DNA of 12,154 bases from an uncultured Thermococci archaeon (GTDB lineage Archaea > Methanobacteriota_B > Thermococci > Thermococcales > Thermococcaceae). This document shows, one piece after another, positions 1-10,996 of the stretch (position 1 is the first letter of the stretch; each line of letters opens with the position of its first letter). A program made the translations under genes and the position numbers. The notes beneath the pieces are model-generated. The model searched no databases. It saw only the letters and a list, made by a program, of their open reading frames with translations, and was not told the DNA's origin. The DNA lies in assembly GCA_964487115.1 (NCBI GenBank), contig CAZAPD010000058.1, positions 1-12,154 of the forward strand, written 5' to 3'.

Positions 1-1108
1 TGTGCATCTCCATTCCCTCTATCTCAGCCAACCTAATTCCGAGATAGCGCTCGCTTAGGAATTCTCCTCTGCTGACGTACGCTAAGCTTATCCTTTTCAT
101 GAAGTCCATAACTGTTAGAACCCCGCTGAACTTCGCAGCTCCCCCGGTTGGCAAAACGTGGTTAACTCCAAGGAAGTAGTCGGCAGCTGGCACCGGTGTG
201 TATTCGCCGAGATAAATCGCTCCAGCGTTTTCAATTAAATCCACGAGTTTCAGTGGTTCCTTCGTGATTATCTCCAAGTGTTCTGGAGCTATCTCGTTAG
301 CTTTTTCGGCACATTCCTCCAAGCTTTCACACAGGACAACTTCAATTCCGTCCCTTCTGCAGTACTCCGCTAATTCCTTTGAAGTCGTTAAAAGCCAGGC
401 CTTGCTGTCCTTTCCGTGCTCCAGCTGGGAAAGCAAATCGTATAAAACATACTCCTTATCTGCTGTCTCATCGGTTATAACAGCGATCTCTGATGGTCCA
501 GCTAAGCTGTCAATTCCTACAACACCAAAGACCTGCCTCTTTGCTTCGTTCACGAACTTGTTCCCAGGTCCAAAGATTTTGTTTACTTTCTTCATTCCAA
601 TGCCGTAGGCCATCGCTCCGATAGCTTGAATCCCTCCAAGTTTGTAAACTTCCTTAATGCCGAGAAGCTTTGCAACGTAGAGGATGTAGGGATTAACTTT
701 GCCGTTCTTTGGTGGTGTTGTGACCACTATTTCTTTTACGCCAGCAATCTTTGCTGGCACGCCAACCATTATGAGTGTTGAAGGCAGAGGCTTCCCTCCG
801 GGGACGTAGATACCGATCCTCCTTATCGGTTTGTAGATTATACCATAAAGCGAAGCATTCTTTATGTAGAGCTTATCGCTCTCAAGCTGTTTCTCGTGAT
901 ACTCCCAGATTCTTTCTATTGTGCGCTTGATTATTTTCTTATCCTTCTCTGGAATCTGCCTCTCCGCTTCTTCAAACTCTTCTTCACTAACAAGGAATTC
1001 CCCGTCATAGCCGTCAAACTTCCTTGAGTATTCCTTTACAGCTTCAATACCTCTTTCCCTTATGTCTTTCAAAATTTGAGCCACATAGCTTTCTAACTCA
1101 AAATTCAT
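1..1108 (-). CDS. hisD: Histidinol dehydrogenase (3' end runs off the left edge of the window)
   Basis: Not in the ORF track because it has no stop in the window. Manual translation from ATG 1108 gives [33 protein letters not shown], then [61 protein letters not shown] and [10 protein letters not shown], all HisD motifs. Overlaps the hisG stop by 11 nt. Confidence 0.96.
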
Positions 1109-1715
1109 CTTTGACAACCTCCTTAATTTTTAAAACAAGCTCGTTAATCTCCTTAAACTTCGTCTTTTGGGAGATTCTGTTCACCAAAAGCAAAGCCGAA
1201 ACATCCATAATCTTCTCCACCTCAACTAACCCATTGGCTCTCAATGTGTTTCCCGTCTCGACGATGTCAACGATGGCATCTGCAATCCCAATTTTTGGGG
1301 CAAGCTCGATGCTTCCGTGAAGCTTTATCACTTCAACCTCAACTCTTCTCATCTCAAAGAACTTCCTTGCAAGGTTTGGGTATTTGGTGGCTATCCTAAA
1401 ACCGTCCATCTCTTCAACGCTGACTGCATTTTCTTTGGGCATCGCCAAGCTTAAGCGGCACTTTCCAAAAGGCAGCTCAAGAGGAACGAGGACGTCACTT
1501 TCCCTTTCCTCAACAACATCGCTTCCAGCTATGCCAACGTCAACGCCATACTCGACGTAAACCGGGACATCAAAAGCCCTTGCAAGGAGGAGCTCATATC
1601 TGCCGTTTTTTACCATCAATTCTCTGTTCTCTGGTGGCTTAAGCTCAATTCCAGCTTTTCTTAGGATTTCAAGCGAACCCTTGAATAGTCGTCCTTTTGG
1701 GAGAACAAATCTCAT
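1098..1715 (-). CDS. hisG: ATP phosphoribosyltransferase, short form (HisGs)
   Basis: 205 aa with [31 protein letters not shown] and [13 protein letters not shown]. It lacks the C-terminal regulatory domain, which fits the adjacent hisZ. ATGA overlap with hisZ. Confidence 0.96.
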
Positions 1716-2602
1716 TCTTCCACCTCCACTGGAATGCCGAGCTTTATGAGCTCTTTTGCAAGCTTGTATGCCTCTTTCAGCTCCCCTCTGATTCTTTTTC
1801 TGTTCTTCTCTGTTTTGCCGTTGAAGAGTCTTGAGAGTGCATTTAAGTCAAAGGCGAATCCAAAAGCGCTGACTCCTTTAAATGTATACTCTCCGCCGCC
1901 TCCGAGCGGTTTTCCAATCTTTGGAGAATAGACCTCAAAGATTATGTCGTTGTAGTAGGGAAGAGGTCTTATTGTGCCGAAATCTATGAAGACTCTCTCA
2001 TCGTCAACCGTCTCGATAATTCTGTTGAGCTTTTCGTATTCACAGCTCTTTCCCCTGAAGTTGAACAGCTGCCAGAGCTCTTCTTTCTTCTCCTCGGTTA
2101 TAGGCAGTCTTTCGATGATTTCGAAGTTTCTCCTCGTCAGGGCTCTGAAGATCTCCGCTCTAAATTCTTCAAGTCCCTCAATTGCTCTCTCCCAGGCTTT
2201 CAAGCTACCGACGTCGATGTAGAAGTCCTCGATGCCGAGCGCCTCGAGGGAAGTTATAACAGTTAAGAGAACCTCGACCTGCATTTTGACGTCTTCTCCG
2301 CTGAGGAACTCAACTCCAGCCTGCCACTTTCCTTTAATTCCTCCATCCAGCACTTCGCTAATATAGTAAAGCTTAAGTTTCTTGGGTTCCTTGAGGTTTG
2401 CAAGTATCTGAGATGTCAGGTCTGGTTTTATTACATAAAATCCATTGTTGTAGGCAAATTTTGTTCCTTTTCTCAGCTCCTCGCTGAACTCTTCTATCGT
2501 TGGTAAAAATATCTCTCTATACCCCCAAAGCTCAAATGTGCGCCTTAAATACTTTGTAATATCCGCTAACCTCTCTGATTCGGAAAATAAATCCTTCTTC
2601 AA
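1712..2602 (-). CDS. hisZ: ATP phosphoribosyltransferase regulatory subunit
   Basis: 296 aa with HisRS-like motifs ([48 protein letters not shown]) directly upstream of short hisG. TTG start with RBS GGAGGGA (2608..2614) 5 nt upstream. Confidence 0.92.
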
Positions 2603-2614
2603 AATAATCCCTCC

Positions 2615-2639
2615 AAGATATTTTCGATGAAAATATCCT
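2615..2639 (-). promoter_or_regulatory. Inverted repeat / RNA hairpin immediately 5' of the hisZ RBS
   Basis: Perfect 9-bp inverted repeat GATATTTTC-GAT-GAAAATATC (2617..2637). In the mRNA it extends to 11 bp through G-U and A-U pairs and ends right at the Shine-Dalgarno. Confidence 0.6.
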
Positions 2640-2677
2640 CTGAATAGCAGGAATCCAGATTGAATACATTAGAATAG

Positions 2678-2782
2678 TCAATGATGATGGTAGTAGCTCA
2701 CCAGAACAGGGAATACACCTACACAGTTCAACTGGGTGTTCGTATCTATTCTTGTTTTTTCCATACCATTTTTCAATTTCAT
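2678..2782 (-). CDS. Putative his-operon leader peptide, 34 aa: MKLKNGMEKTRIDTNTQLNCVGVFPVLVSYYHHH
   Basis: ATG at 2782 with RBS AGGAGGGG (2788..2795) 5 nt upstream. Ends TAC TAC CAT CAT CAT TGA. Sits between the TATA box and hisZ on the same strand. Confidence 0.75.
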   Translation of the reverse strand: MKLKNGMEKTRIDTNTQLNCVGVFPVLVSYYHHH

Positions 2783-2823
2783 GTTAACCCCTCCTACTTG
2801 AGAAGAAAAAATATACGCAGGGG

Positions 2824-2837
2824 TATTTAAACTTATC
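2824..2837 (-). promoter_or_regulatory. BRE/TATA promoter of the leader + his operon
   Basis: The minus strand reads GATAAG-TTTAAATA. Typical archaeal spacing puts the start site near 2800, just ahead of the leader RBS. Confidence 0.7.
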
Positions 2838-2980
2838 CAGAAGTTTTTTGTCTAAATATCATCTAATGCAATTATCATTGTCTCTGGTTCTGACTTATGA
2901 CTTTAAACTTAGCATGCATGATACATAATGACTATCCGGAAGCTAATAAGTTTGAAAATCATCTTCATATGGTGGTTCAT

Positions 2981-3394
2981 ATGGAGGTAGCTGACAGGGA
3001 GATTTTTGAAATTAATACCAATGCGGAGATTCAGGCTAAGGAAGCTGACAGAGAAATTCAGATGACAGGGTAATCAAAAAATAGGTGAACAGGACAAAGC
3101 CCGGAAAGATGGATATCAACATAACAGGCGAGTTCGCGGTTATAGGTGAGAAAATGAGTAGGTAATAATCGAAAAACCCGATGTTCGCGTAGATGAATAG
3201 TGAGAAGCTCTACAGGGAACTGGCAGGTTATACTGCAACCGAGAAAACCACTTCATTCTCAAAATGCTTGCAGACATGGAAAGAAGCTACTATAGCATAC
3301 TGAGGAGGCAGTATGAATACATAACCCTGTATCCTGACATATACAAAGCGGAGTTCTACGATCAGCTTATGAAGGATATAACTTCAACTTCTGA
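2981..3394 (+). pseudogene. Degraded ferritin-like/rubrerythrin-family gene
   Basis: RBS GGTGGT plus ATG 2981 gives MEVADREIFEINTNAEIQAKEA with a stop at 3073. A fragment from 3193 (MNSEKLYRELAGY) and a third-frame fragment (LKMLADMERSYYSILRRQYEY) follow. Together they resemble the helices of a ferritin-like bundle in three frames, with ExxH changed to ERSY. Confidence 0.7.
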
Positions 3395-3406
3395 GCTTCG
3401 TTGTGT

Positions 3407-3946
3407 TTATACCCTTCTACCTTTATATTTGAGTACAACAAATTCCTTGTAGTCCATTATCTTCTCAAAGCCCTTTCTTATATAATAGGAATAAGCCTCA
3501 AGCTCGGGGAAGGTTATTACGTAGGTATCTTTACCAAGCTCGGCAAGTCTCTCAATAGCAAAATAGAGGAGTTTTGAGCCGTGACCCATACCCTTGGAGG
3601 ATGGATCTACCATAAAGAACTCTAAAAGACCTGTTTTTCCATTTTTGATTTCATCTGGCACCCACCAGACCTCTTTCCCTTCAAGGTTATATACAAGAGC
3701 AACTGTACCTAAAATATTATCTTTGTCATCGCGGAGGATGTAGAGCTCGTCAAATTCCTTTTCGAGGCGAAACTGTAAAAAAGGTTCATAGACCCTCTTA
3801 AACCCTTCAAAGTCCTCGGGAGAGGGCTTATTTTTCACCCATTCAAGAGCAGGATAAGCGCCATTTGTCCCCTGATAGACACGGAAGACAAATTTGATAA
3901 GCTTTTTTTCGAGCTTTGGGGGAGTTACAACCTTAATTACTTTCAT
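3407..3946 (-). CDS. GNAT-family N-acetyltransferase
   Basis: Contains FMVDPSSKGMGHGSKLL (acetyl-CoA motif A) and AYSYYIRKGF (motif B). The likely start is ATG 3946 or 3952; the track's extension to 4141 is antisense to the next gene. Confidence 0.85.
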   Translation of the reverse strand: MKVIKVVTPPKLEKKLIKFVFRVYQGTNGAYPALEWVKNKPSPEDFEGFKRVYEPFLQFRLEKEFDELYILRDDKDNILGTVALVYNLEGKEVWWVPDEIKNGKTGLLEFFMVDPSSKGMGHGSKLLYFAIERLAELGKDTYVITFPELEAYSYYIRKGFEKIMDYKEFVVLKYKGRRV

Positions 3947-3991
3947 TCCCATTCCCAAAAAGTTAATAGTTCTCCATCTAAATAAATTTTG

Positions 3992-4477
3992 GTGGTAAAT
4001 ACGGATGAACTCGAAGCACTTACACTGGCACTGGAAGTTGAAAAGGCTGAGATGAAGTTTTACCTTGAGATGGCGAGAAAAGCTAAGGAAGAAAGGGCAA
4101 GCAGGATGTTCCTTTTCCTTGCAAGCGAAGAAGCAGAACACTGGGACATATTTGAGGACAACCTCATAAAAAAACTTGTAGAAAAGTGCAAGCTTCCCTC
4201 ATTCGATAAGGAATACCTCAAAAAGCTAACTCCTGTGTATGGAGGGCAACTCAGCGAGGTTAAAGCAGTGGAGTTGGGCATGGAGCAGGAAAAGCGCACA
4301 TGGGAGTTTTATGAGAAAGCCGCCCGGGAAGCTAGGGATGAAGATGTAGGGAAGGTTTTCCACGAGCTTGCGGAGGTAGAAAAAGCACATTATGAACTTC
4401 TTAGAGCTCAGTATGACTCCATAATGAAAACAGGTATATGGATGGACTATCAAGACTTTAGTTTGGAGATAGATTGA
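3992..4477 (+). CDS. Ferritin-like / rubrerythrin-family diiron protein (no rubredoxin domain); start uncertain (TTG 3989, GTG 3992 or ACG 4001)
   Basis: Two repeats of E-x6-Y...ExxH: LEVEKAEMKFY...EEAEH and MEQEKRTWEFY...VEKAH. Confidence 0.88.
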   Translation: MVNTDELEALTLALEVEKAEMKFYLEMARKAKEERASRMFLFLASEEAEHWDIFEDNLIKKLVEKCKLPSFDKEYLKKLTPVYGGQLSEVKAVELGMEQEKRTWEFYEKAAREARDEDVGKVFHELAEVEKAHYELLRAQYDSIMKTGIWMDYQDFSLEID

Positions 4478-4505
4478 GCCCCCTCCCAAAACTTTTATTC
4501 ATAGA

Positions 4506-4518
4506 GAAAACTTTATTA
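4506..4518 (+). promoter_or_regulatory. BRE/TATA promoter of the small ferritin-like gene
   Basis: GAAAAC-TTTATTA about 33 nt upstream of GTG 4551; RBS GGTGA at 4541..4545. Confidence 0.55.
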
Positions 4519-4550
4519 CCCCAGATGTGGAACATTGAGTGGTGATTTAG

Positions 4551-4850
4551 GTGCTTGGATTGAACCCGATTTCTATAAACAAAGAAAAACTGTCACAGAG
4601 AGAAATTGCCCAGGCACTCCGCTGGGCAGTTATGGCTGAACTCGATGCCATAAACTTCTATGAACAGTTTGCTGAACTGATAGAGGATGAAGCTGTTAGG
4701 CACACGTTTCTTGATGTTGCCAACGAGGAAAAGGAGCACGTGGGTGAGTTTCTGGCTCTGCTTCTTAAACTCGATCCCGAACTGAAGGGATGGATGAAAA
4801 GGGGCTTCAAGGAAGTTGAAGAGGAAACCGGGATAAAAGTGGAGCTTTAG
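4551..4850 (+). CDS. Small ferritin-like protein (half-bundle, encapsulated-ferritin/Flp-like)
   Basis: 99 aa with AELDAINFYEQ...NEEKEHVGEF, a single helix pair carrying ExxH. GTG start with RBS GGTGA. Confidence 0.88.
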   Translation: MLGLNPISINKEKLSQREIAQALRWAVMAELDAINFYEQFAELIEDEAVRHTFLDVANEEKEHVGEFLALLLKLDPELKGWMKRGFKEVEEETGIKVEL

Positions 4851-4856
4851 CTCCAC

Positions 4857-5216
4857 TTATCCTCTTTCCAGAAGCAGTCCAAGTTCATTATAAACCTCTA
4901 CCTTGTTAAATCCCTCTCTCTTTAATAGATTTACAATTTCCTTTAGTATCTTTCTCTGGACATTTATCGCAAGCATCCTGCAGAAGTGACATTCGGGTGT
5001 GGAGCGGGCAAGCAGAAGAAACACCTGAACCTTTCTCTCTTCGATAGTGATCCCATAGAGGAGTCCTTCATCTACTATGTTGAGGTTGGTTTCTGGATCT
5101 ATGACACTCCTGAGGATTTTAACAACTCTCATGACTTCAGGGGGCAGATCTTCTCTTGGCCCTTTTTTGATGCTATTCCTTTTCTTTAAAAAATCCAGAA
5201 ACGCCACATCTCTCAC
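4857..5216 (-). CDS. DUF59/SufT-like Fe-S cluster assembly domain protein
   Basis: LRSVIDPETNLNIVDEGLLYGI is the DUF59 signature; also TPECHFC. GTGA overlap with the upstream gene. Confidence 0.8.
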   Translation of the reverse strand: MRDVAFLDFLKKRNSIKKGPREDLPPEVMRVVKILRSVIDPETNLNIVDEGLLYGITIEERKVQVFLLLARSTPECHFCRMLAINVQRKILKEIVNLLKREGFNKVEVYNELGLLLERG

Positions 5217-5533
5217 TTCTTTTCAAATTTTCCAACTATATTGTTTCTCAGGTCATAGACATAGACATTTGAAAACTTTATTAGAGCAAATCTCTCCATT
5301 ATGTTGCCAATTATCCTTGAGTATGCTATAGCACTGGCCCCGGTTATGTTATACTCAGCATGGCTCTCGAAATTGAGCCATACCTTCAGAGTGTCCTCGG
5401 TGACTTCAAGACCTGCTATAACACCTGAATCGAGGATATCTCCACCCGTAACTGGGTCTACTATCTTAGAGAGCTCATTAAGGACAGCCTGATACTCCGG
5501 CGGCCATTTTCTATCTTTCATGTAGATTTTCAT
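5213..5533 (-). CDS. DUF59-like domain protein (no cysteine)
   Basis: LSKIVDPVTGGDILDSGVIAGL is DUF59-like. RBS GGTGAGG upstream of ATG 5533. Confidence 0.72.
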   Translation of the reverse strand: MKIYMKDRKWPPEYQAVLNELSKIVDPVTGGDILDSGVIAGLEVTEDTLKVWLNFESHAEYNITGASAIAYSRIIGNIMERFALIKFSNVYVYDLRNNIVGKFEKK

Positions 5534-5565
5534 TTACCTCACCGGAGGGGGATTGGCATGCATGC

Positions 5566-6228
5566 TTAAAAGATTTCTTGCTCATTTTTGTTTAGCGGTG
5601 GATATTCATTAGGTATTGAAAGGTATATAGAAATTGCCACTATCACCCAGAGAATTACAGGGATAACAAAAAATGCCACTATTATTCCTTTTTGTATGCC
5701 TGTGGTATCATCAAGCCAATACCTTGTCCATGAAAACATGACTACAAACCATGAAGAGACTATCAAAAGTTTCTCTTTTAGTTCATCTACAAAGTTTAGG
5801 GAAATAAGAGAGTTTATCAAAAGGAGAAGTGCTAAGAATGGTCCTACATATATCACATCAACCATTACTGTTGAGTAGTTGCCTGCAAATATTAGACTCG
5901 AAAGGGTTGCAATAGCTTGCAGCATCAGTCTGCCACTAACCTTGACAACATTGCCCATTGCAAGGGAATAGGCGATTAATGCAGGACCAGTTAAAATTAG
6001 AACTGCAAGAATGCCATTTACCGAATGTTTTAATAAAACTGCCCCACTAAATCCACCAGAAGTCATTAATCCCCCTAATAATAAAAGACCTGAAGGATGG
6101 CCTTCTTCTCCGACTATGGTCTCTATATGTCTAAATATCAACCATGTGATTATAATTCCCAAGAGAGTTAACACTCCACTAAGACTCATTATGATTTCAT
6201 ACCATAACTCTAACATTATCCTCGACAT
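5566..6228 (-). CDS. Hypothetical integral membrane protein (about 7 hydrophobic segments)
   Basis: 220-aa ORF with repeated hydrophobic stretches; AT-rich; no family recognised. Confidence 0.7.
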   Translation of the reverse strand: MSRIMLELWYEIIMSLSGVLTLLGIIITWLIFRHIETIVGEEGHPSGLLLLGGLMTSGGFSGAVLLKHSVNGILAVLILTGPALIAYSLAMGNVVKVSGRLMLQAIATLSSLIFAGNYSTVMVDVIYVGPFLALLLLINSLISLNFVDELKEKLLIVSSWFVVMFSWTRYWLDDTTGIQKGIIVAFFVIPVILWVIVAISIYLSIPNEYPPLNKNEQEIF

Positions 6229-6329
6229 CCATTAATTGTTTATATTGGATTTTGGAGGTAGAATAAATAAACTTTATGCTTGCGAAATTTGATACTTTAA
6301 ACTTCGGTTCTCATCTAATGCGAGGAATA

Positions 6330-6359
6330 TAAAAATTAGAAAAAATAAAAACATAAAAG
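6330..6359 (-). terminator. Oligo-T terminator region after the rubredoxin-SOR-HTH unit
   Basis: Several T runs on the minus strand directly after the HTH gene stop. Confidence 0.5.
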
Positions 6360-6545
6360 TCATTCAGCGGGCGCATAATAGCAACGTTTTGGGGAGATTA
6401 TCTTCCCTTCCTTTTTTAGAAGCTTTATTGCTTTGTCAACTTCTTTTTTGTCGAGACCTGTTAATTCTGCGATTTCTTTGCTTTTCAAGGGCTTTTCAGC
6501 CTTTTTAAGAACTTCAAAAACCGCCATCGTGCGTTCCATCTTCAT
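6360..6545 (-). CDS. Small winged helix-turn-helix protein
   Basis: LKSKEIAELTGLDKKEVDKAIKLLKKEGKIISPKRCYY. ATG 6545 overlaps the SOR stop (TGATG); ATG 6539 is an alternative start. Confidence 0.85.
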   Translation of the reverse strand: MKMERTMAVFEVLKKAEKPLKSKEIAELTGLDKKEVDKAIKLLKKEGKIISPKRCYYAPAE

Positions 6546-6892
6546 CACTCCACATCAACCCCGTTCTCCCAGAGGCCATGGATGTTGCAGTAGCTGAGGG
6601 CGTAGAGCTTGCCCTTCTTCTGGGTTCTGAAGAAGAAGACTGCCTTCGGCTCGGTCAGCGGGTCGCCATGGCTGGTAAAGGCAACCCTGCCGACGAGAAC
6701 CGGGAAGTTCTCCCCCTCTGGGTGGAAGTAGAGCTCTATCCAGGCTATATGGTGCTCCGGGGTGTTGGGATGGGCTATCTCCTTTCCGACGCTGACCTCG
6801 ACCTTGACGAGGTCGCCGTCCTTCTCGTACTCTATAACGGGAACGTGCTTCTCTCCCTTCCAGTCTCCACTCTTTATGGTTCCGCTAAGCAT
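6545..6892 (-). CDS. sor: Superoxide reductase (1Fe-SOR, neelaredoxin type), 115 aa
   Basis: EKHVP, HPNTPEHHIAWI and YCNIHGLW give the 4His-1Cys iron site. The true start is ATG 6892 with RBS GAGGTGG. Confidence 0.96.
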   Translation of the reverse strand: MLSGTIKSGDWKGEKHVPVIEYEKDGDLVKVEVSVGKEIAHPNTPEHHIAWIELYFHPEGENFPVLVGRVAFTSHGDPLTEPKAVFFFRTQKKGKLYALSYCNIHGLWENGVDVE

Positions 6893-6902
6893 CTCAACCA
6901 CC

Positions 6903-7064
6903 TCACTCCATCTTTTCAAACATGTCCTTGGGGGCGCCGCAAAGCGGGCAGACCCAGTCCTCGGGAAGGTTCTCAAAGCTGGTTCCGGGGGCAATGCCTG
7001 CCTCCTCATCACCTTCATCTTCGTCATATATGTAGCCGCATACCATGCATTTCCATTTGGTCAT
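6903..7064 (-). CDS. rub: Rubredoxin, 53 aa (not in the ORF track)
   Basis: Manual translation: [53 protein letters not shown], with two CxxCG motifs. RBS GAGGT upstream. Confidence 0.97.
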
Positions 7065-7098
7065 ATTTATTACCTCATTTTAATGTCCGTATTTTAAC

Positions 7099-7123
7099 CT
7101 TATAAAGTTTGTGTTTCAAACTT
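7099..7123 (-). promoter_or_regulatory. Internal promoter for rubredoxin-SOR-HTH with an adjacent GTT-n3-AAC (SurR-type) palindrome
   Basis: TTTATAA on the minus strand at 7100..7106. GTTTCAAAC at 7113..7121 lies within the inverted repeat AAGTTTG-n5-CAAACTT (7105..7123). Confidence 0.55.
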
Positions 7124-7145
7124 ATCAAGTTTAAAAATAAAAGAT

Positions 7146-7661
7146 TCACTCAAAAACAACGAACTTTTCTTTAGGAATACCACAAATAGGGCACCTATCT
7201 GGAGCATCATTAACTGCGGTATATCCGCAGACCGGACAGATGTAGATTTTCTTTATCTCGATGTCCTTTCCGCTCTCGGCAAGTTCTTTTGCCTTCTTAT
7301 AGAGTTCTGCGTGTATCTTCTCGGCTTCGAGGGCATAATGTGTAGTCCTGACGGCGTCCCTCTCGCCTTGAAACTCAGCTGCATTCTTGAAGACTGGGTA
7401 CATCTCCTCGACCTCGTAGGTCTCGCCGTCTATTCCTGCCTGAAGATTCTCTGGGGTTTTGCCCAAATGCTCAAGGGCAATAAAATGGTTTTTGGCATGA
7501 ACAAACTCGGCGTGGGCTATAGCCCTAAAGAGCTTTGCTATGTTGGAGAATCCTTCTTTCTCGGCCTGCTCAGCAAAAATCAGATATTTCATATGGGCCA
7601 TGCTCTCTCCAGCAAATGCATCCTCCAAAAACTTCCGAGTCATTTCCCTCTTTACTCTCAT
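7146..7661 (-). CDS. rbr: Rubrerythrin, 171 aa
   Basis: AFAGESMA, AEFVHA, GETYE and AEKIHA diiron motifs plus a C-terminal CPVCGY...CPICG rubredoxin domain. ATG 7661 with RBS GGTGA. Confidence 0.96.
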   Translation of the reverse strand: MRVKREMTRKFLEDAFAGESMAHMKYLIFAEQAEKEGFSNIAKLFRAIAHAEFVHAKNHFIALEHLGKTPENLQAGIDGETYEVEEMYPVFKNAAEFQGERDAVRTTHYALEAEKIHAELYKKAKELAESGKDIEIKKIYICPVCGYTAVNDAPDRCPICGIPKEKFVVFE

Positions 7662-7800
7662 ATTTATCACCTACAAACGTTGTTGCGTTAATATCTTCGT
7701 GTATTGAGTATATAACAATTTTCCGGATCAAAAGTCGATGAAATTTACACTTCAGCCAATAGATATTCCTTGGGCTTCTGTTCTGTATCCAAAAACGGAG

Positions 7801-9030
7801 TCAAGAGAGCCATGACACAAGCTTTTTAACACCTTCCCTCAGCCTTTCTTCATCATGTACTCGCGGCATGCCTTGGCTTTCAACTGTATCAACGTGGTCG
7901 AACTTGCTTCTTGTAATAAGGGTTTCTATCTTCTTGCCGGCAACACCGGCCCATCCAAAGGCACCGATGATGAGAACAGGCTTCTCATAGTTGGCTTTGT
8001 CCACTATTTCGTAGAGGGTGTAGCGTATCCTTGGATGTATTTCCGCTTCATATGTTGATGCTCCTATTATTATTGCCTCGCTGTCAGGAACATCTCCGAG
8101 AATATCGCTTATCGCAGGGGCTTCCTTATCTGTGAATTTATAAACGACAGGTTTCAATCCATATTTTTCCAGCTCGTCTATAATGAGGTTTATCCTCTTC
8201 TCGACGAAACCATACATAGAGTCGTAGATTACGAGAACTTTGCCCTTTGTGGTTTTTCCTGCACCGACAGCCTCATAGTGTTCGAATATCCGCATCGGAT
8301 TCTTTCTCCATATGAGGCCATGGCCGGGGAGTATCATTTTTGCATCTTCAATTATGCCGAGGTTTTTGAGCTTTTTGATGTTCTGGACGATATACCTGTG
8401 ATAGTGACCGATAACTGTGACGATATACTTCGTTACATGTGGCAGATAGCTTTGAACAACCTCTTCATCACTGTCATCTATCGTTTCCGGAATCCCGTAG
8501 CCGCCTCCAGCGTCACAGGAGAAAATGAGCTTGTCCTCGACGATGTAGGTTATCATGGTGTCCGGCCAGTGGAGCCATGGGACAGTTATAAAGCGGAAAG
8601 TTTTGTTGCTGATTTGTATTTCCTCACCGTCCTTGATGGGATGAAAGTCCTTAACGACATTCCCACCATAGAATCCCTCAAGGAAACGCTTGGCAAAACT
8701 CGTTCCTATGAGCTGGGCTCTGTAGTCGTTGGCCTCAAGAAACGCCGGCAGAACTCCAGTATGATCAGGTTCAGTGTGGTGGATTATCACATGGGTTACC
8801 TCTTTTGGGTCGACAAGTTTTTTTAATGCATCCATAAAGAGGTCAGTATATTCTTTTTTGCTCAAGTCAAAAAGAACTGTTGCCCCCTTAAGCTTCATGA
8901 GGTAAGCGTTGTACGTTATTCCCTCTGGAATATCCCACGTCGCTTCAAAATACCTTATCTTATCATCCTCAACTCGGATTATATAGAGTTCCGGATCATC
9001 GAGGATCTGTTTAACCTTTACATTCGGCAT
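7801..9030 (-). CDS. fprA: FprA-family flavodiiron protein (A-type flavoprotein)
   Basis: Metallo-beta-lactamase domain (HTEPDH, LHWPD, FSCDA, PGHG) plus flavodoxin domain (YDSMYG, GAFGW). Likely start ATG 9030 with RBS GGTGA at 9036..9040. Confidence 0.94.
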   Translation of the reverse strand: MPNVKVKQILDDPELYIIRVEDDKIRYFEATWDIPEGITYNAYLMKLKGATVLFDLSKKEYTDLFMDALKKLVDPKEVTHVIIHHTEPDHTGVLPAFLEANDYRAQLIGTSFAKRFLEGFYGGNVVKDFHPIKDGEEIQISNKTFRFITVPWLHWPDTMITYIVEDKLIFSCDAGGGYGIPETIDDSDEEVVQSYLPHVTKYIVTVIGHYHRYIVQNIKKLKNLGIIEDAKMILPGHGLIWRKNPMRIFEHYEAVGAGKTTKGKVLVIYDSMYGFVEKRINLIIDELEKYGLKPVVYKFTDKEAPAISDILGDVPDSEAIIIGASTYEAEIHPRIRYTLYEIVDKANYEKPVLIIGAFGWAGVAGKKIETLITRSKFDHVDTVESQGMPRVHDEERLREGVKKLVSWLS

Positions 9031-9108
9031 ATCAATCACCGACACCTATTTGGTGTGGAAGCATAAAAACTCTTTCCTATAAACCTGGGCAGGTTAAATC
9101 TCTGGTCA

Positions 9109-10386
9109 TCAGAGTTTTGAAAGCGATTCAAAGAGCGAGCTCCAGAGCTTAAGCGGTGTGAGTTCGGTGAGCATAAGAAAGCCAAGGGTTATCAGCATGA
9201 TTCCAAGGGCAATTTCCCATCTGGCTTTACTCCCTCCCAGCGAGACCTTTCCGGAGAAAAATCTCCTGTTTACCCACTCGCCCAAATCCTTTGAGGCCGT
9301 CAGCAGGTAAATGGTAAGACCCATTCCAAGGCCGTATGTACCCATCACTATTATTCCACTCAGAGTGTTCCCGCTCAGTGCAGCTGTTATCACAGCGAAG
9401 CCGACGTAGGGGGCTATACAACCAAGCCATGTACCACCTAAGGCTGAGCCAAGGGCGAAGTCATAGATTATTCCTCTCTTTGATGTCACCCTGTTCGTAA
9501 CCGAGAAGCTCAGTATTCTTTCTATCTTCGTGCTTACCCTCTGGCTGATAAAGCTCGTGCCGATAATTATGAAGCCGATTCCGCCGATTAGATAGAGTGC
9601 TCCCTGTATCCGGGAGGCATAGCTGCCGAAACTTCCAACAAGTGCCCCGAGGAGGGCGAATGATGTTACCATTCCAGCTATTATCGCCTCGACTTTTCTC
9701 CTCGCAAAGGTGAGAGATAGGGTCCCGATTATAATGGGTAAGACGCAGGGGGAGAAGACGCTCACTATTCCAGCAGAGAATATCGGGAGCAGGACAGCGA
9801 GACTTAAACTGCTCCTCTTCTCCTTCTTTAGCTTTTCTTCCCTGCTCGTTGAAACTGTTGTTTGGCCGTTTTTTCCAGTTGCTTTCTTCACGAAATATGC
9901 TAAACCATTGGGGTTCAATGCACCCACATCCACTCCTCTCAGAATCATCGTCCCATTATCCGCCTTGAAGATCACCATCGTCGGTGTTCCGGGAACGCCA
10001 ACGTTTATCTCCTCTCCGGGATTCTTGGGTCTATAATAGCCAACGTTTTCGGGCTGAATGACTATTACTGGATCATGAACCCTGTACTGGAGTGTTGTAA
10101 TAGAACGCCCTCTGTAGACATCCACTGAAACAAGGACAAGCCCATTGAGGACTTTCCTTGCCTCTTCACTTGGAAAGACATTCGTCTTCATATACTGACA
10201 GGCAGGACATCTTTCAGAGTGGTAAAATATGAAGAAGTATTCTCCATTATGTGAAGAAATCAGCTCCTGAAGCTCCTTATAACTTGTTACGTCATAAAAC
10301 GATAGATCACCGTATTTAACGGTTCCAGCACTTATAAATCCGGCAAACAGCGATAGAAACATGAACATCAACAATATTCTGCGCAC
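9109..10386 (-). CDS. Thioredoxin-like domain fused to a CcdA/DsbD-beta transmembrane domain
   Basis: N-terminal signal-like hydrophobic stretch, then HSERCPACQYMK (CxxC) and PGTPT (cis-Pro loop), then FSPCVLP and WLGCIAP redox cysteines in a multi-TM domain. Confidence 0.85.
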   Translation of the reverse strand: MRRILLMFMFLSLFAGFISAGTVKYGDLSFYDVTSYKELQELISSHNGEYFFIFYHSERCPACQYMKTNVFPSEEARKVLNGLVLVSVDVYRGRSITTLQYRVHDPVIVIQPENVGYYRPKNPGEEINVGVPGTPTMVIFKADNGTMILRGVDVGALNPNGLAYFVKKATGKNGQTTVSTSREEKLKKEKRSSLSLAVLLPIFSAGIVSVFSPCVLPIIIGTLSLTFARRKVEAIIAGMVTSFALLGALVGSFGSYASRIQGALYLIGGIGFIIIGTSFISQRVSTKIERILSFSVTNRVTSKRGIIYDFALGSALGGTWLGCIAPYVGFAVITAALSGNTLSGIIVMGTYGLGMGLTIYLLTASKDLGEWVNRRFFSGKVSLGGSKARWEIALGIMLITLGFLMLTELTPLKLWSSLFESLSKL

Positions 10387-10453
10387 CTATTTCACCTGAA
10401 AAATATTGAAATGATAGTTAAAAAGTCTTTTTTTGAAGCTTCCCTCAGATGTA

Positions 10454-10996
10454 TCATCCTGTTTTCCATGGCTTTCCAAAACGGTTATAACTGACCTTAT
10501 TCCATTCAAAAACTTCAGTGCTACGGGGATTTTTCTTCTCCGCGGGATATCCGATTCCAATGATACATAGAACTCTATAGCTTTCAGGGATTTCGAGAAG
10601 CTCACGGACGTACTCCTCGGCACTTTTTTCATCGTTGTGCATTCGGTTTCTTATCTGCACCCAGAAGGCTCCAAGTCCGAGGTCAAAGGCAGCTAACTGA
10701 ATGTGTTCGGCCGCTATGCTTGAATCTTCCACCCAGACGTCGCTTCTGCTCTCATCAGCTGTGATTACTATCGCCAGTGAAGATGTTGCAAGACCTGAAG
10801 CCCCCAGCTTAGCTTCGGAAAGTTTTTGGAGAATTTCATGATCATCTATAACGAGGAAGTGCCATGGCCTTTTGTTAAAGGAGCTTGGTGATAGAAAAGC
10901 TGCATAGAGAAGCTTCTCAACAAGCTCTTTCGAGAGGGCCCTATTCTGAAAACGCCTGATACTTCTCCTTCTTTTCAACACTTCAAAGAACTCCAT
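10454..10996 (-). CDS. Nitroreductase-family flavoprotein
   Basis: KRRRSIRRF, SPSSFNKRPWHF, LAAFDLGLGAFW and IGIGYP. RBS GGTGGT. Confidence 0.93.
   Translation of the reverse strand: MEFFEVLKRRRSIRRFQNRALSKELVEKLLYAAFLSPSSFNKRPWHFLVIDDHEILQKLSEAKLGASGLATSSLAIVITADESRSDVWVEDSSIAAEHIQLAAFDLGLGAFWVQIRNRMHNDEKSAEEYVRELLEIPESYRVLCIIGIGYPAEKKNPRSTEVFEWNKVSYNRFGKPWKTG

Follow-up and report, generated by a model that had tools for sequence, protein, structure and literature searches.

A conserved leader with terminal histidine codons upstream of hisZ in Thermococcales and a proposed +1 frameshift into the his operon

A short open reading frame with tandem His codons at its end precedes the his operon in the window, the whole 12,154 nt stretch of archaeal DNA analysed here, and is kept in every Thermococcales his locus examined. 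Judged from sequence and conservation, the leader is, with high probability, a real, conserved element that senses histidine. The sequence-only reading had proposed that a ribosome stalled on the terminal His codons when histidine is scarce permits hisZGD expression. Of this, a conserved leader, very probably translated, which senses the supply of His-tRNA for hisZGD, stands, but stalling alone appears insufficient. It is probable that His starvation instead leads to a +1 frameshift in the leader, and that a ribosome so shifted ends translation at the hisZ start codon and reinitiates there.

No published description of amino acid sensing of this kind was found; older comparative operon and microarray work on Pyrococcus and Thermococcus could bear on it. 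The available text of a 2014 T. kodakarensis transcriptome study says that attenuators in archaea had no direct experimental support (PMC4247193), that of PMC8116511 does not contain the word attenuation, the main text of PMC6737238, on the activator of the T. kodakarensis aromatic operon, contains neither "leader" nor "attenuation", and PMC12809536 holds nothing on His repeats. Upstream open reading frames are reported in H. volcanii, with no function given in the available text (PMC7261190). A 2021 review names, for archaea, one programmed frameshift on the chromosome, which is a -1 shift, in its available text (PMC8211752), and the corresponding text of a 2016 review knows of no examples of hungry-codon frameshifting with starvation-specific trans-frame products (PMC5009743). 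If the proposed frameshift is true, the leader would be the first case shown in archaea of both a ribosome-based amino acid sensor and a chromosomal +1 programmed frameshift; in this domain the matching of amino acid biosynthesis to supply after transcription initiation is a largely open field. The leader would also serve as a natural probe of internal Shine-Dalgarno (SD) scanning by elongating archaeal ribosomes. Given the conservation of the element and the long hisZ UTRs mapped in T. kodakarensis and in T. onnurineus, frameshifting, SD unmasking and FttA polarity can be told apart in a laboratory archaeon by a handful of point mutations.

The leader and the his operon in the window

The features of the window that bear on the leader are the following, with the pre-His codon being the codon directly before the His run.

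2824..2838, minus strand: BRE (GGATAAG) and TATA box (TTTAAATA), from the window sequence
2788..2795, minus strand: leader SD AGGAGGGG, 5 nt before the ATG, from the window sequence
2678..2782, minus strand: leader open reading frame, frame 0, 34 codons, ending YYHHH-TGA, from translation and conservation
2697..2702, minus strand: SD-like GGTGAG inside the leader, 5 nt ahead of the pre-His codon, from the window sequence and its conserved register
2681..2692, minus strand: sensor and proposed shift site TAC CAT CAT CAT, from codon conservation
2599..2688, minus strand: +1 bridging frame of 29 codons (IIIDYS...LEGLF), from frame analysis, open in 50 of 50 loci
2671..2674, minus strand: invariant TTCT motif of unproven role, 3–9 nt past the final His codon, with complementarity to the hisZ SD
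2615..2639, minus strand: 11-bp hairpin directly 5′ of the hisZ SD, from folding of the window
1712..2614, minus strand: hisZ, with a weak TTG start at 2602, preceded by SD GGAGGG (2614..2609), from sequence and profile search
1..1715, minus strand: hisG (1715..1098) and hisD (from 1108, truncated by the contig edge), overlapping operon genes

The leader had been placed at 2678..2795. The open reading frame is real and lies on the minus strand, but the frame proper runs from the ATG at 2782 to the TGA at 2678 and the longer span includes the SD. Its 34-codon product is MKLKNGMEKTRIDTNTQLNCVGVFPVLVSYYHHH, for which profile searches gave no NCBIfam or Pfam family. Other claims of the sequence-only reading hold as described, i.e. 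the leader SD AGGAGGGG at 2795..2788 with its 5-nt spacer, the BRE/TATA element GGATAAG-TTTAAATA at 2838..2824 ahead of the leader, and three His codons which are all CAT and come right before the stop (CAT CAT CAT TGA, 2689..2678). After the pre-His codon the +1 frame reads ATC ATC ATT GAC and onward. This bridging frame displays no start codon with an SD in the window, and its stop TGA overlaps the hisZ start (TTGA). The TGA within the internal GGTGAG (2700..2698) is a stop of the +1 frame. The gap from the leader stop to hisZ is 75 nt.

The his genes said to lie downstream of the leader are matched by profile. The hisZ-like gene matches TIGR00443 with an E-value = 8e-35, which is under the curated cut-off; hisG matches TIGR00070 above the cut-off, and hisD matches PF00815. 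The reported lack of a hairpin-plus-U terminator is borne out for the minus strand over 2400..3400, and no Rfam family scores above its gathering score in 2300..3400. With a TATA-to-TSS distance of about 23 bp (PMC4247193), the position of the TATA box would put the window TSS near 2801 and predict a hisZ 5′ UTR of about 199 nt.

The window's genome carries one tRNA-His (GUG), thus CAU is presumably read by wobble. The His run exceeds what chance would give: an HHH end is found in one of 279 candidate SD-led upstream open reading frames of this genome, and CATCATCATTGA has 2 occurrences (both strands) in its 2.06 Mb. Two further genomic GGTGA-N8-CATCAT matches were set aside as they are without the leader layout, and hisS of the same genome shows no leader. 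TGAC is the rarest TGA context in the genome (76 of 883). Among the 50 loci compared below, the leader stop is TGA in 49 and TGA-C follows straight after the His run in 34; the TGA-C leader stop is possibly a slow stop that aids shifting.

On the far side of the his promoter, approximately 560 nt (2840..3400) are without a long open reading frame and give only sub-threshold Rfam matches. This stretch separates the promoter from a GNAT acetyltransferase gene (3946..3407, PF00583). The region 3989..10996, adjoining the his operon, holds a gene cluster that includes a rubrerythrin/ferritin-like gene, assigned by a weak profile match, and genes that look, by their sequences, superoxide-reductase-like, flavodiiron-like and nitroreductase-like.

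Conservation of the leader and the open +1 frame

A sample of 99 Thermococcales genomes gives a clear hisZ orthologue in 50, and all 50 loci were kept. It had been suggested that relatives be searched for short open reading frames that end in His runs despite divergent sequence, and this search is positive: an ATG-led open reading frame with terminal or near-terminal His codons is present at 50 of 50 hisZ loci, with divergent bodies. The leaders are 11–40 codons long and carry 2–4 His codons, and the frame-0 stop follows the His run immediately in 37 loci and within 1–6 codons in 13. Mean identity to the window is 72% in the core motif region, 38% in the leader body and 34% in the spacer. His codons beyond the run amount to only 3 of 1329 leader codons. 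CAT makes up 124 of the 128 leader His codons, compared with 57% genome-wide, in a count where kin are not independent. The pre-His codon is TGC at 24 loci, CGC at 8, TAC at 7, CTT at 7, TGT at 3 and TTC at 1.

The signals around the leader are conserved as well. The start is ATG in 50 of 50 loci, the leader SD score is ≥10 in 48, and a TATA-like box is situated 32–49 nt upstream of the leader ATG in 47. In 38 of 50 loci the best register of the internal SD places it 5 nt ahead of the pre-His codon; in the window's genome GGTGA lies 4–6 nt from the ATG in 425 of 516 starts. The leader ATG is 68–185 nt from hisZ. hisZ starts with TTG at 22 loci, GTG at 21 and ATG at 7, and it has a strong SD of its own at all of them; ATG is the start in 721 of the 839 SD-led genes of the window's genome. 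At locus L015 a second copy of the CATCATTGAC motif lies 18 nt 3′ of the leader stop.

Searches outside the sample add little. hisG searched phylum-wide at E ≤ 1e-40 gave matches in the window's own family only. Scanning metagenome contigs for the motif gave 4 matches, all directly 5′ of hisZ and with the +1 frame open; three of these repeat loci of the set of 50 and L138 alone is new.

Being some 35 nt long, the conserved core is short; it is kept at the nucleotide level and has Ser encoded by AGY codons only. These properties are also what would be expected if the stretch were a DNA or RNA binding site for a protein and the open reading frame features were by-products, with no translational sensor at all. 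We regard this as very improbable. The in-frame, ATG-led open reading frame is found in 50 of 50 loci despite the low identity of the leader body and the wide range of leader lengths, the His run varies in whole codons, and the Thermoplasmata leaders described below keep the coding logic in a different nucleotide context. Rfam gives no family above threshold.

In all 50 loci the +1 frame contains no stop between the beginning of the His run and the hisZ start; the -1 frame is likewise clear in 9. Dinucleotide shuffling of the variable spacer, with the conserved ends fixed and one representative taken per identity group, gives a probability that all are open of 10^-4.6 with 16 identity groups, 10^-6.0 with 19 and 10^-8.5 with 26; four short loci add nothing to the statistic (p = 1). 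Frame 0 ends 24–80 nt upstream of hisZ at every locus. Among the distinct gap lengths, 12 of 20 are divisible by three (p = 0.013). The stop of the +1 frame overlaps the hisZ start (NTGA) in 34 loci, comes directly before an ATG start in 2, lies 4–29 nt inside hisZ in 12 and lies 68 nt inside in 1 (L010). The overlap is uninformative by itself because 41 of the 50 hisZ starts are NTGA; the signal is the openness. An open +1 frame is common by chance in a single genome, being present in 46 of 225 candidate upstream open reading frames, so the case for the +1 frame rests on its conservation among kin. At L026 a spacer 2 nt shorter than that of kin joins the +1 frame to hisZ without an intervening stop; this is either a natural variant or an assembly error.

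The +1 frame has no ordinary entrance, since a +1 stop is situated 3–5 codons upstream of the His run (at -8, -11 or -14) in 45 of 50 loci and an SD-led start codon in the +1 frame is found in only 3. Variants of the upstream stop are TAA at L020 and L024 and TAA-TGA at L047. A frame that is open in all 50 loci and closed just upstream in 45 argues for frameshifting at the stall rather than classical attenuation.

Three other ways past the leader stop were tried and rejected. UGA readthrough into hisZ would need frame 0 to continue, yet only 16 of 50 loci leave it open past the motif, and in the window a TAA follows two codons on. Restart at the TTG that overlaps the leader stop would use the -1 frame, which reaches hisZ in the 9 loci given above, and polymerase slippage is set aside as the site has no homopolymer run.

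The ribosome might also reach the +1 frame without a shift of the kind proposed, either by near-cognate initiation at AUC/AUU by way of GGUGA, or by peptidyl-tRNA that hops past the hungry His codons, with UAC landing on UAU or UGC on UGU in GAC-UNU-UCU. That the shift site is not slippery speaks for such an entry, as does the finding that the pre-His codon encodes the same residue as the +1 codon that follows GAC (Tyr/Tyr, Cys/Cys) in the window and many close relatives. Entry by either route is nevertheless unlikely. GGTGA and the first AUC are 9 nt apart, a distance that 3 of 516 starts show, and de novo initiation would not respond to His. A matching landing codon for the hop is lacking in the CGC, CTT and TCT groups and at L002, L003, L008 and L010.

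Proposed mechanism, RNA folding and transcripts

In the proposed frameshift mechanism, the mRNA would start about 19 nt 5′ of the leader ATG, which fits the UTR lengths of two Thermococcus species, and the leader would be translated, as its conserved SD, ATG and frame suggest. With plentiful His-tRNA, CAU CAU CAU would be decoded and the ribosome would stop at the UGA 75 nt before hisZ. hisZ would then be little translated because the gap is too long, the TTG start is weak and the SD is partly paired; gaps of about 20 nt nearly abolish coupling in H. volcanii and E. coli (Huber 2023, PMC10666635). The untranslated mRNA would perhaps be shortened by FttA-type polarity. With scarce His-tRNA, the A site would be empty at CAU and the internal GGUGA would pair with the 16S tail, docking at an initiation-like spacing while the A site waits. 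Some ribosomes would enter the +1 frame (AUC/AUU, Ile), read 29 codons across the spacer and melt its structure, and these would stop at the UGA of UUGA and restart on hisZ. Translation of the leader, the shift, its efficiency and its dependence on His are predictions drawn from the observed layout, conservation and frame pattern.

Several observations count against a frameshift at this site. The pre-His codons TGC, CGC, TAC and TGT cannot re-pair in the +1 frame, which covers 42 of 50 loci including the window, and the TTC of one further locus re-pairs poorly. A P-site slip from CAU to AUC would keep only one Watson-Crick pair. The SD spacing is 5 nt after GGUGA, which is initiation-like, versus the 3-nt compression of prfB, and L010, with its +1 stop deep inside hisZ, is a poor fit. 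The strong SD that hisZ itself has at all loci is a further point against. In favour, a P-site codon of the prfB/Ty1 type is present in the 7 loci with CTT CAT. Shifting of the Ty3 type takes place in +1 with no re-pairing and is weak when stimulators are absent (PMC5009743). The TTCT motif could be a shift stimulator or an anti-SD.

An anti-SD role of the motif would allow translational attenuation of the mycobacterial poly-Cys type, where the stalled ribosome covers the YYNUUCU sequence and frees the hisZ SD with no frameshift. The UUCU can pair with the hisZ SD core (4 bp) in 50 of 50 loci, though it is invariant, and long motif-SD helices of up to 13–14 bp are found in the L018–L031 group. 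Over the 50 loci, a modelled ribosome footprint lowers the mean pairing of the SD from 0.80 to 0.63 at 37 °C and from 0.65 to 0.52 at 70 °C. The SD is paired at >0.5 in 48 of 50 loci at 37 °C and in 37 of 50 at 70 °C, in folding that has no shuffle control. However, motif-SD pairing itself exceeds 0.5 in only 14 of 50 loci at 37 °C, the motif-SD duplex in the window reaches only −3.4 kcal/mol, and motif and SD show no covariation, own pairing compared with cross pairing giving a median permutation p of 0.88 across the 50 loci. No common fold was found among these loci. For the window, SD pairing is 0.86 with a footprint over the His codons, versus 0.54 for free RNA, at 37 °C, and 0.68 versus 0.38 at 60 °C; at 80 °C the pairing is 0.38–0.40. 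Plain stalling is disfavoured because the modelled footprint does not free the window SD. A ribosome terminating at the adjacent UGA would mask the same motif, and the open +1 frame would be left unexplained. SD unmasking by a stalled ribosome is therefore rather unlikely as the whole account; the anti-SD pairing may act in the frameshift mechanism as a lock that shifted ribosomes open.

Published primary TSS show that the leader could lie within the hisZ transcript. The hisZ 5′ UTR measures 148 nt for TK0242 of T. kodakarensis (PMC4247193 supplement) and 199 nt for TON_0878 of T. onnurineus (PMC5316973 supplement); median 5′ UTRs are 16 nt in the former (PMC4247193) and 12 nt in the latter (PMC5316973). 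Both hisZ UTRs can hold a leader because the leader ATGs lie within the range of distances to hisZ given above. In the P. furiosus supplement rows the genes are present with no TSS row. Eight public RNA runs share only 4–7% of the words. Four of them, at 80% likeness, gave contigs of a relative, of which two are 80 kb long and for that reason probably derived from DNA; these contigs carry no information on transcript starts, ends or levels.

The T. onnurineus data (PMC5316973) give hisZ mRNA at 0.11x and 0.85x, and hisG–hisF mRNA at 0.22–0.31x and 1.05–1.56x, of the first condition, where the order of conditions is inferred as rich, CO, formate and those media contain 0.1% yeast extract. These published levels, in which his mRNA does not rise in minimal media, neither test translation nor support His control at the mRNA level. 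In T. kodakarensis the his genes drop as growth slows under iron (PMC12827226). The hisZ signal exceeds that of hisG approximately 6–13-fold in T. onnurineus and 10-fold in T. kodakarensis.

This step in signal is compatible with polarity and hence with transcription attenuation by coupling, which is the account closest to the sequence-only reading. Pyrimidine-rich RNA would become accessible to FttA/aCPSF1, or to intrinsic termination at a U tract, once the ribosome leaves at the leader UGA, and would be shielded by a stalled ribosome. In T. kodakarensis FttA ends transcription through cleavage of the nascent RNA, and archaeal terminators need no hairpin (PMC13675443). The window, however, has no U4 tract right after the stop, the spacer is unconserved, and the signal drops after hisZ and not before it, a drop which may be 5′ bias of the libraries. 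The frame pattern is not accounted for, mRNA does not rise in minimal media, and control of this kind appears quite unlikely.

Parallels at other loci and comparison with known systems

A scan of named genomes found a related hisZ in two Thermoplasmata MAGs and one Caldiserica MAG. The Caldiserica gene (L091) has no leader and is coupled to an upstream gene. Within the Thermoplasmata order that holds L089 and L090 Ca. Saliniplasma, a Thermococcales-like hisZ is present in 22 of 44 genomes (L094–L115, 45–58% identity within the order). A leader with GTT CAT precedes 17 of these 22 and 5 are without such a leader. The His site is often doubled (VHLCYVH), GTT CAT is in the hisZ frame, and the frame-0 stop falls 72–144 nt before hisZ. 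As support from an independent lineage, the +1 frame is open for 26–49 codons to an NTGA in 17 of 17 leaders and the -1 frame in none; the shuffle probability is 10^-5.7 to 10^-7.5 with 8–10 groups. The +1 frame mostly has no close upstream stop, the stops being at -5 to -86, so a start of its own is a possible way in. GTT re-pairs at two of three positions in +1 in the 17 of 22 loci. The distribution suggests that the operon moved between phyla together with its leader.

A search for cognate-codon leaders before other operons, trp among them, had also been suggested, and trp is positive. At 15 of 17 Thermococcales trpC genes (L052–L066) there is an SD-led leader of the M(T)GDGFW type, one frame off trpC; L051 and L067 have no such leader. 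The site is UUU_UGG, 4 nt after GGUG(A/G), and a +1 step there leads straight into the TrpC frame, in which start codons lack a well-spaced SD. Here a hungry cognate codon follows a textbook slippery one, and TrpC may be made by way of a +1 shift at the Trp codon. The frameshift reading thus predicts misannotated starts, of which trpC would be one. The window's own genome (96% complete) has no trpC or ilvD match above cut-off. ilvD in 8 of 99 genomes is an internal gene of its operon and not the first gene.

Taken together, the his and trp leaders slightly favour a wider reading, in which +1 frameshifting at hungry cognate codons would be a general gauge of amino acid supply in Thermococcales and some Thermoplasmata. 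At his, tandem CAU without re-pairing would lead to a start-less bridging frame coupled to hisZ, and at trp, UUU_UGG would lead to TrpC, the annotated trpC start being wrong and TrpC a trans-frame protein.

Several known systems share parts of this design. The enterobacterial hisL leader is likewise a short open reading frame with tandem His codons before the his operon, on which the ribosome senses charged tRNA-His, and hisL has 7 His codons in mid-frame. The leaders described here differ in that they have 2–4 His codons at the C-terminal end, no terminator and antiterminator hairpins with a U tract, and a conserved open +1 frame. A T-box is not indicated, as Rfam gives no match and UGGU-like bases vary among loci.

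Ketolide-induced regulatory frameshifting in ermCL, reportedly the work of Gupta et al. in 2013, is a close likeness: the shift takes place within the leader, the spacer is read in the new frame, structure is unfolded and the downstream gene is turned on. There the leader shift activates the downstream gene (described in PMC5009743). In the his leaders, too, the shifted frame spans the spacer to the downstream initiation region. ermCL differs in having an antibiotic trigger and in being bacterial, while here the conserved His codons point to lack of the operon's own amino acid as the trigger, in archaea, and the new frame runs out at the start codon of the next gene, which would give coupling. 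To the extent that the frameshift reading holds, for which the balance of evidence is favourable, control by a frameshift in a leader would have a new trigger here and a new domain.

Mycobacterial poly-Cys leaders resemble the his leader in that terminal cognate codons control the next gene and a candidate anti-SD adjoins (bioRxiv 10.1101/834739). Those open reading frames are leaderless and the stalled ribosome blocks a duplex that sequesters the SD, whereas the his leader is SD-led and shows no duplex covariation, and pairing of the window SD is not lowered by the footprint.

With prfB, Ty1/Ty3 and antizyme the his leader would share a +1 shift at a slow A-site codon, an upstream internal SD and the use of frameshifting as a sensor (PMC5009743). 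As in prfB, frame 0 closes shortly after the site while the +1 frame continues without a stop to the regulated gene (50 of 50 and 17 of 17 loci). The slow codon of prfB is a stop and its SD is 3 nt before the shift codon (PMC5009743), while here the slow codon would be a cognate sense codon and the SD is at 5 nt in 38 of 50. Re-pairing of the prfB kind is absent at TAC_CAT in the window and present at UUU_UGG of trpC (15 of 17). prfB yields a fusion protein; the his product here would be a throw-away bridge, and the trpC case and L026 would be fusions.

The last step has a counterpart in archaea, where NTGA overlaps (-4) are used to restart on the next gene (PMC10666635). Such overlaps are normally constitutive between two genes, while in the his leaders the upstream frame is start-less and entry into it would be conditional.
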